55,522 nucleotides of DNA from an uncultured Ruficoccus sp. (GTDB taxonomy: Bacteria; Verrucomicrobiota; Verrucomicrobiia; Opitutales; Cerasicoccaceae): contig OZ223498.1 of NCBI GenBank assembly GCA_965140785.1, positions 1 to 55,522 on the forward strand. The letters run 5' to 3'. The position numbers are program-made. Positions 32,401 to 37,843 of the stretch are shown one piece after another (the stretch's first letter is position 1; every line of letters starts with the position of its first letter).

Positions 32401-35400
32401 GATGCCTATGTGCAGGCGCGCTACATCACGGTGGCTGCCGAAGTTCCGGGCAGAATTGCTGAGCTGCCGGTGCAGGATGGCTTAGCGGTGGAGACCGGGC
32501 AACTGCTTGTGCAGATCGACCCCAAGTCCTATGAGCTCGCTGTGGCTTCGTCCGTCGCGCAAATCGAGGCCCTGGAGGCTCAGCTGAGTGAGGCCGAGCG
32601 TCAGCGCGAGGCGGCCTTGGAGTTGGTGGAGACTTCACGTGCAAACACGGAGCGGGCATTGGCCCAGGAGCAGTTGGCGCAGTCCACCTACGAGCGGATG
32701 GGACCGCTGGCCGAGGAGGGATTTGTCACGAAGGAGCGTTATGACGCGGTGACCTCCGCGTGGGAACAGGCGCGCGCGGGCGTGCTCATGGCCAAAAGCA
32801 GCGAACTTTCAGCGGAGCTGGCTGTGCCGTCACTGGATACACTGCGGGCTGAGTTGAAAGCCGCGCGTGTGCGCCTGGCGCAGGCTGAGCTGGAGCTGGA
32901 GCGAACGCGGGTACTGGCATCGTTTCCGGGTCGTATCGTCAACTGCGACATCGCACCGGGGATGATGACCATGCCCGGTGAACCGCTCTTCACTCTGGTG
33001 GACACGCGCGAGTGGTTTGTCATGGCCAACTACCGGGAGGGTGACCTGAAAAATATCCACCTCGGCGACAAGGCCAAGGTGCGCCTGCTCACGCTGCCGA
33101 ATAAAACCTTCACCGGGGAGGTGGTCAGCATCGGGCATGGTGTGCAAAATTCGGATACGTATAACGTCGGGCCGCTGCCCATCGTGCGCAGTGACCTGGA
33201 TTGGGTGCGTCTGGCGCAGCGCTTCCCGGTGCGTATACGCATCGACCAGCCCGAGCCCGAAGAGGCTTTCCGCATCGGAGCCAGTGCGGTGGTGGTAGTT
33301 GAGTGAGCATGGTCGGGCGATTGACAGTACAGGAGATTATCCGGGAGCTGAGGCCCTATCCCGGTCGGGAATGGATGACTTTGCGTATTGTCCTGTCTGT
33401 GCTGCTGGCGACGGTGATCATCATGTGGCTGCAAATCCCCAACGGTTGGCTGAGCATTTACTTCAGCTTTGTCTTTGCCAAGCCCACGACCAAGCAGACC
33501 TTTTTAATCACGACCGCTGTGGTCATCGTAGTGGTGCCGATGATACTGCTCTCGCTACTCCTGCTCAAGTTCACGGCAGAGTATACCTGGCTGCGGCTTG
33601 CCACGCTCGCGCTGGTGCTGTACGGGTCGTTCTTTCTGGCCAATATCATGACCGAGGGCGACATCGTCCGCAACCTGGCCATTGTCTTCGCGACTGCGCT
33701 GACCATACCGGATGTCTACCCCTATCCGCACCTGTGGGTAACGGAGATGATGTGGCTCATGCCGGTCGTGCTGGCCGGGGTCATCCCGGTCATGCTGACG
33801 ACGCTCCTGATTCGCCCCGAGCGTAACTGGGCTCCCGAATATCGACCCCCGGCCAAGAAACTCGGCATCGTCCCGGACTGGCTGAGCAATCGCGCCCACC
33901 AGGTTTACGCCCTCAAGTGCACGTTTGCCGCGATGGGCACGTACTTCATCTACACGCTGGTGAACTTTCAGGAGATTCAGACAGCCATGATGACCTGCCT
34001 AATCCTTGCCCTGCCCACCACCGACCAGATCATCCACAAGACCTGGCTGCGCATCGGCGGGGCCACGGTTGGGGCTGGGATTGCCTTGTTTTGTGCGATC
34101 TGGATCATCCCTCAGTCGAACTCGATCGGCATCCTGCTGGTGGCGGTTGGCTGTGGGGCGTCGCTGGCCGCGTGGGTGGCCCTTAGCTCGCCCCGTTTGT
34201 CCTACGCGGGCTGGCAGATGGCCCTGGCGCAGTTCATGATGATCTCTACCTCCTTTGGCCCTGCCACGGAACTCACTGTCCTGCGTGATCGGCTGCTGGG
34301 CATCCTACTGGGAAATATTATGATGGGAATGACTTTTAAGTACCTCTGGCCTGAGAAGAAAAGCGCCCCTGCCGCGCTCCAGCAAATCGTGCCGGTGCTG
34401 CTGGTCGCCGGATTGGCGCTCGGGCTGAGCGGTTGCCGCAACACGGAAGACCTCGCCCCGAAAACTCCGAGCCGCCCGTGGCGCAGTGCCGAGGTCACGA
34501 ATTACCAGCTGCCCCGGCAGTATACCCTGCCTATGGAGGAAGTGTTTGACGAAGAGCACATCTACACGCTGTCTGAGCTGGCAGACATCGCTCAGCGCAA
34601 TAACCCAAAGACGCGGGTGGCCTGGGAGCAGGCGAGGGCGGCAGCAGCCGGAGTCGGGGTGGCTGAGAGCGCTTACTACCCGGAGCTGACGCTGCTCACT
34701 GCTGCCGGGTACGAACACGTGCCCATGCCTTTGCCGCAGAATATTTTTCCCAAGGGGTATTTCTACTCTGACATGGCCGTCATCCGCCCCGAGCTCCAGA
34801 TGGATTGGGTGCTGTGGGACTTCGGGCGGCGCGAGGCGAGTGTCAAAAGCGCACGTGAGCAGTCCATGGCCCAAAACTTTGCCTTCAATGCAATGCACCA
34901 GGAGGTGCTTTTCTCCGTCTGCCGGGCCTACTATAAACTAATTAGTATTCGCTCGGCGCTGGCGGTGATCTCAGCTGCCCAGGATGATGCCGCGTTGATT
35001 GAGCGCGCCACGCAGAAGGCGCTGGAGCAGGGCTTTTCCACCCGCGCGGAACTGTTGCAGGCCAAGCAACAGGTCGCGCAGTTCGACTTCGACAAGTCCG
35101 CGCTACAAGCCGACCTGCGCAAAGCCCAGGTGAACCTGTCCGAAAGCGTGGGGCTGGACCCCGCCGTGCCGCTACAGATTCAGGACCTTTCCCAGATCCC
35201 GCTGCCGGATAATCTCGGGCAGTCGGTTAACGCGCTTGTTGACCGTGCACTGGCTAACCGACCGGACCTGCAGGCGCGTGTGGCCGAGCTGCGCGCGGCC
35301 GAGGCACAGGTCGAGGAGGCTGAAGCCGCCTTTGGGCCGACGCTCGCCATCAGCGGTAATGCCGGTCCGATCTACACTGCTTTTGATGCGGATAACACCG

Positions 35401-37843
35401 GCTGGGTCTCGACCTTCGAGCCGCAGTACGGCGGCGCGCTGGTCTTTCAGTTGCCGATCTTCGACGGGTTTCGCCACCAGCAGGAAAAGATTGCCGCGCT
35501 GGCCGAAAAGCGTCGGGTGGAGGCCGCGATCGAGGATGCCCGAAATGCTGCGGTGAGCGATGTGTGGGAGGCCTATACGGACTTCGAGAACGCCCGCCGC
35601 AAGCTCAATGCCGCCCAGGCGCTGGTGGAGGCGTCAGAGGCCTCACAGGAGGCGACTCTGGCCTCGTTTGAGAAGGGCTTTTCGGACGTGACCGACGTGC
35701 AGACCCAGCAGGCGCTTTTAACCGCTGCGCGTGAAAGCTACAGCCAGGCGCGCACCGATGTCTTTCTGAGCGCCTCTCTGCTGCAGTTTGCTACCGGGCA
35801 ACTGAGTGCCGAGAAAATTGGCCCCGGTCTTTCTAAGTGACCGTTCGACTTTACGATACTGCTCAAAAAGGCTTCTATGGGTAAATAGGCCTCGACATCA
35901 GCAGGTTATGCCCGCCGGCCGCCCTTTAGCGATTTCTCGGCTTCTCCGGGTGAAATCGCAAGGCAGGCGTGTATTGAACTTTCAATACGACGTCAGGAAG
36001 GCGGCGAAGGATATCCAGTAGGTGAAAATGGCGGCCACACCCAGGCCGATCAGGAAAAGCCCGATGCGGGTTTTTCGCCAGACCTCGGAAAATCCAGATA
36101 GCTGGATGAAGACATCGGGGAGGTAGGCCAGGCAATAGAGGACGTTGGCGGCGACCGCCAGCAATATGAAGACCAGGAGTTGGTTGAACTCGAAAACCCG
36201 CAACGAGGTGGGCAGGCCGGCCACGAAGTAGGTAATGACGATAAGGGCGAGAACCGCGTTGTAGACGATCCGCATACGCTCCCAGTAGCGCAGGGCGTCG
36301 GTGACGATTTCCTTCAGGCGCTGGTTCATGGGGTGTCGGGGCGAGAGGTGGTATCAGGCGGAGTTACGGCGGGAGCAGGGGAAGGCATCTCCTGCGAAAA
36401 AGGCTGGACTGGGGTGGATGAGGGGACGGCTTTTTCTACCATACGGGGCGGAAAACCGGTGCCGTCCAGACTAAGGGCGTTCTTCTCCGCTTGCAGACGT
36501 TCGAGGCAGTTGGAGAGGATGGCCTCCTGAACTTCCAGTCCCTGTTCCAGCTTTTGCTTGGCCGCTTTTTGCTCAGGAGTAAGGGGGGCGGTCTTGGCTT
36601 GTGTGTCGTAGGCGGCGAGTTCGTCGCGGAGAGCTTTTATTTTTGTGCGATGCCGATCGGCGCGGGCACGTAGGTCTTCGACTGCGCTCATGGCGGCTCC
36701 GATCGCTCGTCGCACGTCATGGGCAATGCATTCGTCGGCGTAAAGATTTGCGATCATGGCTGCCATGTCGGGGTCCGGGTGGGTATAGCCGATACGGATG
36801 AGCCATGTTTTTCGGATCCTTTGCACCGCTTTGTTCTGTTCAATGATGGTAGCAGGATCGAGGGGAGAGCCGGCCGAGACACCCGCATCCCGGTAGGGAG
36901 CCAGAAAGCGCACGCGTTCATCGTCTTTGAGGCGCTGGGCGACGGCTTCGGAGAGGGTGGGCGAGCTGAACTCTTCCACCAGGCTCAGCAAGTCCTCTTC
37001 ATCGCTGGTGGCGGGTGGTTGCGTGGGCAGGTCTTTGACTTCCACGGCTCCAGTACGAAGTATCTGGAGAGTCGCCCGGGAGTAGTAAAGCACTTCGGGA
37101 GAATACGCGACCTCCTGCTGTTCTTTGAGTCGGGTGGCGGCGGCGTGGCGTACGTTTGGGTCCGTGTCGTGCCCGGCGACTTCCGCCAGGGCGAGTGGGT
37201 CGGTCAGTTTTTTGGTGGCGGCGAGACGGACGGCGGAGTCGGGGGCGCTACGGGCGATGTCGGCCAGCAGCGCAGGATCGGTCAAGTCTTTGACGGCCTG
37301 GCGGCGGCTGCTTGCGTCCTCGCCGCGGAGCGCGGTTTGCGCGAGCGCCTGCTGGTTGGCTCTTCGTTCAGCGGCGGCGATGCTGTCGATCGGTGCGACC
37401 TCGGTGGCCGGGTTAAAGTTATCGAGAAAGTCGTCGAGGACTTGTGGAGCGTCGCTGCGGTAAATTTTTAAACTGCCCTCGACCGAGGGCGGAATCCGTG
37501 GGTTCCGATCCGCCTCTTCGAGGATCTGCTCATAGGGGCTCTCGTCGTCGTCCCGGCCAGTGAGGGGGGCGGCGGGCAGCAGCAGGAGGGCGAGGGCCCA
37601 CGCGAGGTGGCGCTTCATGGGGAGATGGCGTTGGGTTTGGCGCAGGCTGACGGCAGCAGAAAGCTGCCACAAGCCGGAGGCTAACGTTTACTTGCATGAC
37701 GGCTTTTCCCGGCGAAGGCAAGCCTCTACGAGGGGTGGCGGGTGAGCCCCCCGGTTCGGACGCTTCCAGCCCCGTGCGCGAAGCCCCCTCAGTCTGTGCG
37801 GGGATGTCCGGCGCGGCACTTGTCTTCGAGGAGCTTGGCCACG

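Follow-up and report, generated by a model that had tools for sequence, protein, structure and literature searches.

A small group of marine-type Verrucomicrobia makes an efflux pump and its exit duct as one protein. In the window analyzed here, a stretch of 55,522 bp from an uncultured Ruficoccus sp. (contig OZ223498.1), the responsible gene is an in-frame fusion of neighbors in a tripartite efflux operon of the MdtNOP/AaeAB type (FUSC/PET), in which a slimmed-down mdtO is joined to a complete gene for a NodT-type lipoprotein outer-membrane factor (OMF) precursor, signal peptide included. The product is probably a natural polyprotein that would be cut by the lipoprotein pathway. The features of the locus are as follows.

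32022 to 32222, + strand: ytcA/DUF1656-like gene for a small membrane protein of 66 aa, first gene of the operon (Pfam YtcA, E = 2.3e-12; DUF1656, E = 2.8e-6)
32251 to 33306, + strand: mdtN-like gene for a periplasmic adaptor of the HlyD family (NCBIfam MdtN, E = 1.8e-94; Pfam HlyD_D23, HlyD_3, and Biotin_lipoyl_2)
33309 to 35840, + strand: fused gene of 843 aa, comprising mini-MdtO, type II signal peptide, and OMF (ORF translation, profile matches, homologues)
33357 to 33818, + strand: membrane bundle 1, residues ~17 to 170, six predicted helices (BLASTP to P0043; AlphaFold2)
33867 to 34355, + strand: membrane bundle 2, residues 187 to 349, FUSC_2 with an ALMT-like fold (Pfam, NCBIfam MdtO, VIA-align)
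34356 to 34433, + strand: putative internal type II signal peptide, residues 350 to 375 (sequence, predicted helix 355 to 374, conservation)
34434 to 34436, + strand: codon (TGC) of Cys376, predicted diacylglyceryl site and first residue of the mature OMF (invariant in 10/10; lipobox pattern)
34437 to 34568, + strand: N-terminal segment of the predicted mature OMF, residues 377 to 420, with the motif LAPKTPSRPW
34569 to 35153, + strand: OEP repeat 1, residues 421 to 615 (PF02321, E = 2.0e-24)
35229 to 35798, + strand: OEP repeat 2, residues 641 to 830 (PF02321, E = 1.4e-27), the best OEP stretch

Translation of the fused ORF gave 843 codons with zero internal stops, and Pfam searches recovered FUSC_2 followed by an OMF with two OEP repeats in this single frame, as an earlier note on this DNA had described. 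The ORF is real, intact, and under purifying selection, with dN/dS values against G094 of 0.096 (pump part) and 0.098 (OMF part) and a pump-part range of 0.096 to 0.16. The earlier note had also placed an adaptor gene directly upstream and the same frame in two other genomes; an MdtN/HlyD-type ORF indeed ends 2 nt before the ATG of the fused gene, and single frames were found in G094 (78% identity over residues 1 to 841) and G084 (59% over residues 7 to 837). The overall architecture that it proposed, in which pump domain, internal lipoprotein signal, and OMF share a single conserved frame, was borne out. Its statement that other genomes of the family hold the OMF part only did not stand: the proteins concerned in G011, G048, G073, and G115 matched at merely 29 to 30% identity and were rejected as a split form of the fused gene, being paralogous OMFs.

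The fused gene is the last of a conserved three-gene operon, after the ytcA-like and the mdtN-like adaptor genes, so that the adaptor, the small YtcA/AaeX protein, and the OMF that make up a FUSC/PET gene set are all encoded beside the FUSC part. A 66-aa ytcA-like homologue also immediately precedes the adaptor gene in G084 (L003, 191 to 391) and in G094 (L002, 5130 to 5330, minus strand). The longest adaptor ORF (395 aa) opens at 32119, and its NCBIfam MdtN match begins at residue 59; the ATG at 32251 is the probable start, since a start there leaves the ytcA-like ORF free of overlap and agrees with the 356-aa homologue in L003 (G084). An unfused four-gene arrangement was found in G024, from the same bacterial order, where genes for an adaptor, a 722-aa MdtO, and an OMF lie 2 nt apart and the stand-alone OMF carries an N-terminal signal with LFSGC.

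The pump part matched Pfam FUSC_2 at residues 212 to 336 (34.4 bits against a gathering cutoff of 25.6), and residues 180 to 359 corresponded to positions 333 to 511 of the 683-position NCBIfam MdtO model. Because the score for this equivalog was 155 bits against a cutoff of 821, the pump part is not an MdtO orthologue. The earlier note had seen only half of an MdtO, but alignment to P0043, a 661-aa MdtO-like protein with the JGI name “multidrug resistance protein MdtO,” found both six-helix bundles: residues 25 to 150 aligned with P0043 residues 23 to 148 (BLASTP, 22% identity, E = 2e-4) and residues 174 to 350 with P0043 residues 333 to 499 (37% identity), so both bundles are kept and the two cytoplasmic domains are missing. 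The protein thereby departs from the FUSC/PET layout, in which a bundle and a cytoplasmic domain occur twice over ~650 to 700 aa. An AlphaFold2 model of residues 1 to 384 (pLDDT 91.9) contained six plus six helices followed by a helix at 355 to 374 (block pLDDT 64 to 89), with bundle 1 formed by helices 20 to 41, 47 to 55, 61 to 89, 93 to 113, 117 to 136, and 140 to 167. Bundle 2 resembled plant ALMT structures in VIA-align (ALMT1 7voj, Z = 12.2; ALMT9 8hiw, Z = 11.4; ALMT12 7w6k, Z = 10.6, rmsd 2.7 over 160 residues), the next row having a Z of 7.4, and Pfam ALMT also matched the relatives P0067 and P0158. Lysine and arginine cluster at residues 1 to 26 (5), 169 to 203 (7), and 344 to 351 (3).

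The two OEP stretches together scored 169.7 bits against a cutoff of 22, and the scores for named OMF subfamilies stayed below their cutoffs (TIGR01845 [NodT], 101.6 versus 210.05; TIGR01844 [TolC], 146.7 versus 225.15). The N-terminal segment of this part holds the invariant residues A383, P384, and W391 (10 aligned fused homologues), and the LAPKTPSRPW-type motif is common to stand-alone lipoprotein OMFs and a second fusion lineage. The joint, LSGC-RNTEDL-APKTPSRPW, parallels LLGAC-NDTRDL-APPSPDTPW of a stand-alone OMF, and a lipobox followed by AP..P..PW occurred in 14 of 19 stand-alone OMF relatives and 18 of 22 fused proteins; by sequence comparison, the joint is collinear with the signal peptide and mature N terminus of stand-alone lipoprotein OMFs. 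Between Cys376 and H421, where the whole-protein model has the first OMF helix, lie 44 residues; read by eye from the sequences, this segment is no longer than in the stand-alone lipoprotein relatives. The whole-protein model was poor (pLDDT 57.8), and the mutual placement of the pump and OMF halves is for that reason not readable from it.

At the joint, where the earlier note had placed a lipobox with Cys376, the sequence reads ...VLLVAGLALGLSGC, which includes this cysteine. The putative signal has a positive n-region (K350-K351), a hydrophobic core (IVPVLLVAGLALG), and L-S-G before the cysteine, which fits the form [LVI][ASTVI][GAS]C; a PROSITE-style lipobox pattern, in an approximate form, also matched at Cys376. 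Gly375-Cys376 was invariant in all 10 aligned fused homologues, each of which has lysine or arginine before the hydrophobic core (read by eye from the alignment), and the stretch from 351 to 376 had a dN/dS of 0.90 against G094. Genes for both Lgt (PF01790, E = 3.5e-64) and LspA (PF01252, E = 7.8e-37) were found in the same genome (G000).

The fusion is more widespread than the three genomes that the earlier note had considered few. Ten full-length fused homologues (45 to 86% identity) and one truncated homologue were found, and this fusion comprises ~12 sequence clusters in one clade of Puniceicoccaceae and kin. P0011 belongs to a cluster of 15 members, each 839 aa long, in assemblies from ENA, Logan, JGI, and NCBI. 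A tree built from 151 MdtO-like rows grouped all 11 mini-fused proteins in one clade (support 99 to 100) and placed P0099, P0116, and P0158 elsewhere, each beside unfused sisters; on this tree, MdtO-OMF fusions arose at least three more times outside the clade. Each of these independent fusions retains at the joint the signal peptide of the duct itself, in the form of a lipobox or of a type I-like site: L[LA][AG]C in 8 of 9 aligned members of the P0116 lineage, and type I-like signal peptides ending in ARA, LHA, and IQA in P0099, P0158, and P0234, respectively. Three of the clusters among the independent fusions consist of single sequences (P0116's own sequence, P0158, and P0233).

Under the polyprotein reading, the 12-helix pump domain would take its place in the inner membrane with its N and C termini both facing the cytoplasm, going by the side of the ALMT fold that is known to be cytoplasmic. 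The former signal peptide would act as helix 13, cross the membrane in the outward direction, and start export of the 467-residue OMF part, after which Lgt would lipidate Cys376 at the periplasmic face and LspA would cut between Gly375 and Cys376. The pump would be left with the old signal peptide as its C-terminal helix, and the freed, lipidated OMF would travel to the outer membrane, as OprM/NodT-type lipoproteins do, to form a normal tripartite pump with the MdtN-like adaptor and the YtcA-like small protein.

The comparative evidence favors such cleavage at Gly375-Cys376: Gly-Cys does not vary, although the remainder of the signal changes almost without constraint; the joint lines up with the signal peptide and mature N terminus of stand-alone lipoprotein OMFs; independent MdtO-OMF fusions also retain a cleavage motif; and the genome has genes for both Lgt and LspA. 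The position of the signal counts against it: lipoprotein predictors expect the cysteine ~15 to 35 residues from the N terminus of the chain, and this lipobox lies ~375 residues inside, far outside that range. Lgt or LspA might also be impeded by the 12 helices that immediately precede the signal. P0009 and P0011 have LPGC at the joint, which fails the PROSITE-style pattern in a strict, approximate form and also counts against cleavage, although the stand-alone relatives P0017 and P0019 have LPGC in their N-terminal signals.

The chain might instead stay whole, with the hydrophobic stretch as a permanent 13th transmembrane helix and the OMF tethered to the pump, Cys376 being possibly lipidated but uncut, so that one polypeptide would span from the inner to the outer membrane. 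The uninterrupted frame in all homologues and the predicted helix at 355 to 374 are in keeping with this explanation, which we consider unlikely: a plain tether gives no reason for an invariant Gly-Cys beside a drifting helix, nor for the AXA-type or lipobox motifs of the independent fusions. The segment between Cys376 and H421 is also not lengthened to cross the periplasm, which measures ~200 Å or more; with the OMF N terminus near the equatorial domain, 44 residues would be marginal at best by general geometry. Moreover, we know of no precedent for handing a beta-barrel to the BAM machinery while it is anchored in the inner membrane, as a whole chain would demand.

Less probable still is an internal start at Met338, Met339, or Met341, 35 to 38 residues before the cysteine, which would yield most of the OMF as an ordinary lipoprotein precursor and leave the read-through fusion as a side product, tolerated where two genes overlap. 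M338 and M339 do not vary among the 10 aligned sequences, and ATGs lie 34 to 38 codons before the cysteine in G000 and G094 and 37 to 38 in G084, but these methionines fall within the conserved pump helix 12, which can explain their conservation, and M341 is not conserved. A signal of 35 to 38 residues would be long, and the fused chain would be made regardless, as the pump frame has no stop codon in any homologue. The internal ATGs are not preceded by a Shine-Dalgarno-like motif, a weak test given that the annotated starts lack one too. An assembly or frameshift error, or a drifting pump remnant that lost its stop codon, is highly improbable: the two missing cytoplasmic domains would suit decay, but the same frame recurs in ~12 sequence clusters from many independent assemblies, and the low pump-part dN/dS, the many residues invariant across 45%-identical sequences, and the confident model of residues 1 to 384 contradict it. 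“Mini” MdtO proteins (341 to 389 aa) also exist elsewhere as separate chains, and one of these is encoded in an operon together with YtcA and an adaptor.

In published descriptions, a tripartite efflux pump consists of three or four separate proteins, and a lipoprotein signal stands at the N terminus. The conserved chain of pump, lipobox, and duct leaves two possibilities, both unusual: Lgt and LspA act on a signal preceded by twelve transmembrane helices, which would widen the rules on which every lipoprotein predictor relies, or one polypeptide extends to both membranes. In our judgment, it is somewhat likely that the lipoprotein pathway here processes a natural bacterial polyprotein, the first such case, with Lgt and LspA acting behind a 12-helix transporter, and that the same trick, with type I or type II signals, evolved at least four times in MdtO-type pumps; targeted literature searches found no description of such a pump-duct fusion. 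The fusion hard-wires coexpression of pump and duct; equal amounts of the two as its benefit would be a guess. It offers a simple handle on the assembly order and stoichiometry of such pumps, and mini-MdtO is a natural minimal FUSC/PET pump, made of membrane bundles only and confidently modeled, in a poorly understood family. Since the named relatives are described species (Ruficoccus amylovorans and Cerasicoccus fimbriatus), the prediction is testable with routine blots.

The fusion gives an efflux system that is already known a new form. Like YtcA-MdtN-MdtO-MdtP and AaeX-AaeA-AaeB of Escherichia coli, tripartite pumps of the FUSC/PET (aromatic acid exporter) family, the locus encodes a small YtcA/DUF1656 protein, a HlyD-type adaptor, a FUSC protein, and an OMF in the same order; unlike in those systems, pump and OMF are one ORF, and unlike MdtO, the pump (352 aa versus 683 model positions) has neither of the cytoplasmic domains. 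FuaABC of Stenotrophomonas is reportedly another tripartite pump of the FUSC/PET family (PMC3517613). Bundle 2 shares the six-helix fold of plant ALMT anion channels, which, unlike the fused protein, are eukaryotic channels with a cytosolic helical domain and without an adaptor or OMF partner. We know of no natural internal lipoprotein signal with a polytopic domain upstream. Going by the title of a 1985 report by Hayashi et al. (J Biol Chem 260:5753), internalized prolipoprotein signals are reportedly modified and processed in E. coli and Bacillus subtilis; those constructs, which likewise had a lipoprotein signal peptide inside a chain, were artificial. As in NodT/OprM-type lipoprotein OMFs, two OEP repeats and a lipobox cysteine followed by an AP..P..PW segment are present here, the differences being a signal peptide 350 residues inside the chain and the scores below the TIGR01845 and TIGR01844 cutoffs. 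FbcH, the cytochrome b-c1 polyprotein of Bradyrhizobium, joins a polytopic inner-membrane protein through an internal signal peptide to a periplasmic or membrane-anchored partner of the same complex and is split after insertion; its signal is of type I, for leader peptidase, and neither product leaves the inner membrane. Judged from sequence and model, the fused protein has the same succession of polytopic domain, internal signal with a cleavage motif, and partner subunit, but its signal is of type II, and its second product should leave for the outer membrane.

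The earlier note had described a pump domain and an outer-membrane factor (OMF) encoded in a single frame, and the ORF at 33309..35840 (+) indeed translates to 843 aa with no stop. Its claimed domains were recovered by Pfam, with FUSC_2 at residues 212-336 and OEP twice. Residues 180-359 match positions 333-511 of 683 in the NCBIfam MdtO model, and the TolC and NodT subfamily models match residues 420-836 with scores below their curated cut-offs. The internal lipobox stretch was found as proposed, as WPEKKSAPAALQQIVPVLLVAGLALGLSGCRNTEDLAPKTPSRPW, with Cys376 encoded at nt 34434-34436. 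The ORF ending at 33306, said to encode a HlyD-type adaptor, codes for an MdtN-like HlyD adaptor (MdtN model, E 1.8e-94), and its stop codon lies 2 nt 5' of the fused-gene ATG, the gap that had been claimed. The features around the fused gene, with a second unusual OMF of the same genome, are as follows.

29125..30705, minus strand: Mg-chelatase ChlI-like AAA+ protein (Pfam Mg_chelatase, ChlI, Mg_chelatase_C)
30775..31938, plus strand: choloylglycine hydrolase/penicillin V acylase family gene (Pfam CBAH, E 2.9e-46)
32022..32222, plus strand: ytcA-like small ORF, 66 aa (Pfam YtcA, E 2.3e-12; DUF1656)
34569-35153, plus strand: OEP repeat 1 of the fused gene (Pfam)
35229-35798, plus strand: OEP repeat 2 of the fused gene (Pfam)
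36326..37672, minus strand: 448-aa ORF 3' of the fused gene, with no Pfam family at E ≤ 0.01
37789..40467, minus strand: 892-aa glycoside hydrolase (MGH1-like and GH63 C-terminal domains)
1851..4274 of locus L032 (contig C34, outside the window), plus strand: 807-aa OMF (OEP repeats)

The N-terminal part had been taken for half of an MdtO, but both six-helix membrane bundles were found, in order. Residues 25-150 align with positions 23-148 of the 661-aa MdtO-like protein P0043 (E 2e-4), and residues 174-350 align with its positions 333-499 (37% identity). Of an MdtO-like protein, this part lacks the two cytoplasmic domains and nothing else. An AlphaFold2 model of residues 1-384, built from a 100-sequence alignment (pLDDT 91.9, pTM 0.86), contained six helices (20-167), a loop, six further helices (195-346), and a final helix (355-374); the whole-protein model from 10 sequences (pLDDT 57.8) was too poor for use. 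Against the PDB, Foldseek had no meaningful match for the N-domain model (best E 0.023, TM ~0.18), and by sequence the N part had no relative among PDB chains (best E 1.5). In an exhaustive VIA-align search with residues 187-349, three ALMT channels ranked at the top (Z 12.2, 11.4, and 10.6, the last with an rmsd of 2.7 over 160 residues), followed by a row at Z 7.4; helical bundles in general can give Z values below ~13. Pfam is in line with the ALMT matches: its own ALMT model picks up the relatives P0067 and P0158 as well. ALMTs carry a cytosolic domain after their six-helix bundle, which would place the end of bundle 2 in the cytoplasm. Clusters of K/R at residues 1-26 (five), 169-203 (seven), and 344-351 (three) are consistent with an inside location of the N-terminus, the inter-bundle loop, and the bundle 2 end. 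In that orientation, the signal helix would cross outward from the cytoplasm and bring Cys376 to the periplasmic side of the membrane, the site of Lgt and LspA action.

A search of 5.8 billion clustered proteins (E ≤ 0.001) produced 56 matches, 10 of which (query counted in) were full-length fused proteins of 829-860 aa with 45-86% identity; one further match, P0010, was a truncated fused fragment. Two named matches, from Ruficoccus amylovorans and Cerasicoccus fimbriatus, are both publicly annotated as "TolC family protein." An exhaustive search with residues 1-352 revealed P0057 (825 aa) as a further fused representative, and the 90% cluster of P0011 held 15 members of 839 aa each from four different sources. 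Of 121 genomes sampled from the order, three carried the fused gene (G000, the genome analyzed here, and two others, G094 and G084). The N part occurred in two of 401 sampled across the phylum, which also yielded one weak full-length FUSC match; the fused gene is thus rare and clade restricted. Family genomes claimed to hold only the OMF part do not hold a split version, the matches (29-30% identity) being paralogous OMFs. Between G000 and G094, dN/dS (our own Nei-Gojobori script) was 0.096 for residues 1-350 and 0.098 for residues 421-843, with values of 0.38 for residues 377-420 and 0.90 for residues 351-376. The pump half and the OMF half are under equally strong purifying selection.

With a dN/dS of 0.90, the hydrophobic core at the joint is nearly free to change, which is the pattern in which cleaved signal peptides evolve. 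Gly375 and Cys376 were invariant in an alignment of ten fused proteins, and K/R preceded the hydrophobic core in all ten (reading of alignment blocks). The joint forms a complete lipoprotein signal peptide. A PROSITE-style lipobox pattern, scanned without overlaps, matched the aligned Cys in six of the ten (P0001 to P0005 and P0007); in P0006 and P0008 the non-overlapping scan reported an earlier Cys, and the LPGC of P0009 and P0011 fails the pattern. The N-terminal signals of the stand-alone OMF relatives P0017 and P0019 also contain LPGC. The segment after the Cys (a spacer of 6-7, then AP..P..PW) repeats the mature N-terminal layout of stand-alone lipoprotein OMFs (LSGC-RNTEDL-APKTPSRPW in the fused gene versus LLGAC-NDTRDL-APPSPDTPW in stand-alone P0021). 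A single regular expression for lipobox plus motif matched at the N-terminus in 14 of 19 stand-alone relatives (P0012 to P0030) and at an internal site in 18 of 22 fused proteins; it missed P0057, P0099, P0158, and P0234. Asp directly after the Cys was absent from all ten aligned fused proteins; under the E. coli +2 rule, outer-membrane sorting is therefore predicted. Lgt and LspA genes are present in this genome, too.

One stand-alone relative, P0030 (546 aa; precomputed Pfam OEP and YtcA), has a YtcA-like first helix and then an OMF signal peptide with a lipobox, …LLGAC-NDTSGL-APASPDTPW. Either this is another case of an internal lipobox following a membrane segment, or the start codon was placed too far 5'.

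Residues 1-352 had 1282 relatives at E ≤ 0.001, and the best 150 representatives were examined. Full-length MdtO-like proteins (600-745 aa) made up most of them; seven were stand-alone mini forms with both bundles in 341-389 aa (P0059, P0100, P0101, P0121, P0124, P0134, and P0145), and six contained OEP domains (P0001, P0011, P0057, and the three long proteins P0099, P0116, and P0158). A FastTree tree of 151 rows was built without the truncated P0010, after 6 of the 157 aligned sequences had been dropped for <60% occupancy. In this tree, the 11 mini-fused proteins formed one clade (support 99-100), sister to full-length P0058 and P0060. P0099, P0116, and P0158 each fell elsewhere, beside unfused proteins (support 95-99 for the sister pairings with P0095 and P0139 and for the 16-row clade holding P0116), and the label "fused, full length" required three changes. 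One mini-fused clade and three separate full-length changes indicate that the mdtO-OMF fusion arose at least four times. The P0116 lineage was conserved in its own right, with seven further proteins of 1075-1176 aa (P0227 to P0233) and the more distant P0234, and eight of these nine shared the joint ...LL[A/L][A/G]C-ATS..L..AP.RPD.PW. Type I-like signals precede the OMF part in P0099, P0158, and P0234, ending ARA, LHA, and IQA. Every fusion lineage has kept the OMF's own signal peptide with its cleavage motif. When the "mini" label was widened to 10 rows of ≤430 aa, including the seven mini forms, it needed 9 changes on the MdtO tree, and this scatter suggests that the cytoplasmic domains have been lost repeatedly; gene fragments may account for some of the other short rows. 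A related-locus search with the mini-MdtO P0059 returned one locus. One stand-alone mini form, in a Chthoniobacter MAG, lies 3' of YtcA and adaptor genes, with the OMF gene divergently transcribed.

What the analysis establishes is the architecture, its conservation and origin, and that the processing enzymes are present. The most economical reading is a polyprotein, for which we infer lipidation, cleavage, and sorting. Once the pump domain had inserted into the inner membrane, the OMF part would be exported by the old signal peptide, and Cys376 would be processed by Lgt and LspA. The spent signal would stay on the pump as a 13th helix, a consequence absent from the earlier note; the lipidated OMF would pass to the outer membrane, and the pump would then join the adaptor and the YtcA-like protein. 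In an apparent experimental precedent, internalized lipoprotein signals were reportedly processed (Hayashi et al. 1985).

A decayed pump remnant, which had been raised as a possibility, and an assembly artefact are both excluded by the strong purifying selection on the two halves (dN/dS ~0.10 in each), and the conservation data contradict artefact or decay in general. An uncut chain spanning both membranes is unlikely: it leaves the invariant Gly-Cys and the retained AXA motifs unexplained, and the stretch linking Cys376 with the first OMF helix (H421) is 44 residues, which, from a reading of the sequences, does not exceed that in stand-alone relatives. Internal translation starting at Met338, Met339, or Met341 is a less likely possibility and would leave the fused chain still being made; in a Shine-Dalgarno test of these starts, the annotated starts in this operon also had no such motifs.

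The 807-aa OMF at L032 carries an N-terminal type I-like signal (MKLNLFLTLLLSALALPLAAQS), ~380 residues of unassigned domain, and two OEP repeats, directly 3' of a large membrane-protein ORF that by eye resembles an RND-type pump.

Targeted literature searching turned up neither a pump-OMF fusion nor a natural internal lipobox, and among the best matches listed for MdtO, MdtP, or MdtN, which were resistome surveys or similar, none concerned fusion. The parts of a 2021 Chem Rev review that were consulted do not mention MdtO or AaeB (PMC8277102). In the consulted parts of a survey of outer-membrane pore families, fusions to other domains are described as rare and none with an inner-membrane transporter is listed (PMC4827864). 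The parts of the fused protein are well known, and their arrangement is not. The gene is relevant to the efflux-pump and lipoprotein-biogenesis fields and is cheap to test.

The 66-aa-type small ORF also lies 5' of the adaptor gene in G084 and G094, so the ytcA-like gene, the mdtN-like adaptor gene, and the fused gene form a conserved unit. The CBAH-family hydrolase gene, which lies 84 nt 5' of the ytcA-like gene in the same orientation, is not kept beside the operon in G084; it was rejected as a member because an other-strand ORF precedes the ytcA-like gene there. At locus L030 of another genome (G001:C12), a 378-aa ORF (1419..2555, +; probable adaptor) precedes a 717-aa ORF (2561..4714, +), these calls resting on ORF size; the 717-aa product matches query residues 170-349 with 39% identity. 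No OMF-size ORF lies directly 3' of it among ORFs of ≥60 aa, so pairing of pump and OMF genes is not universal in this order. An unfused layout occurs in G024, of the same order, with genes for an adaptor (337 aa), a 722-aa MdtO, and a 459-aa OMF; the last starts 2 nt past the MdtO stop, and its N-terminus, MKKIQKSSALYLSILCCSIGLFSGC, is an N-terminal lipoprotein signal. The cytochrome b-c1 polyprotein of Bradyrhizobium is a natural analogue of the proposed processing. The E. coli genes are arranged ytcA-mdtN-mdtO-mdtP, and the Ruficoccus operon has the same layout, with the last two genes joined.
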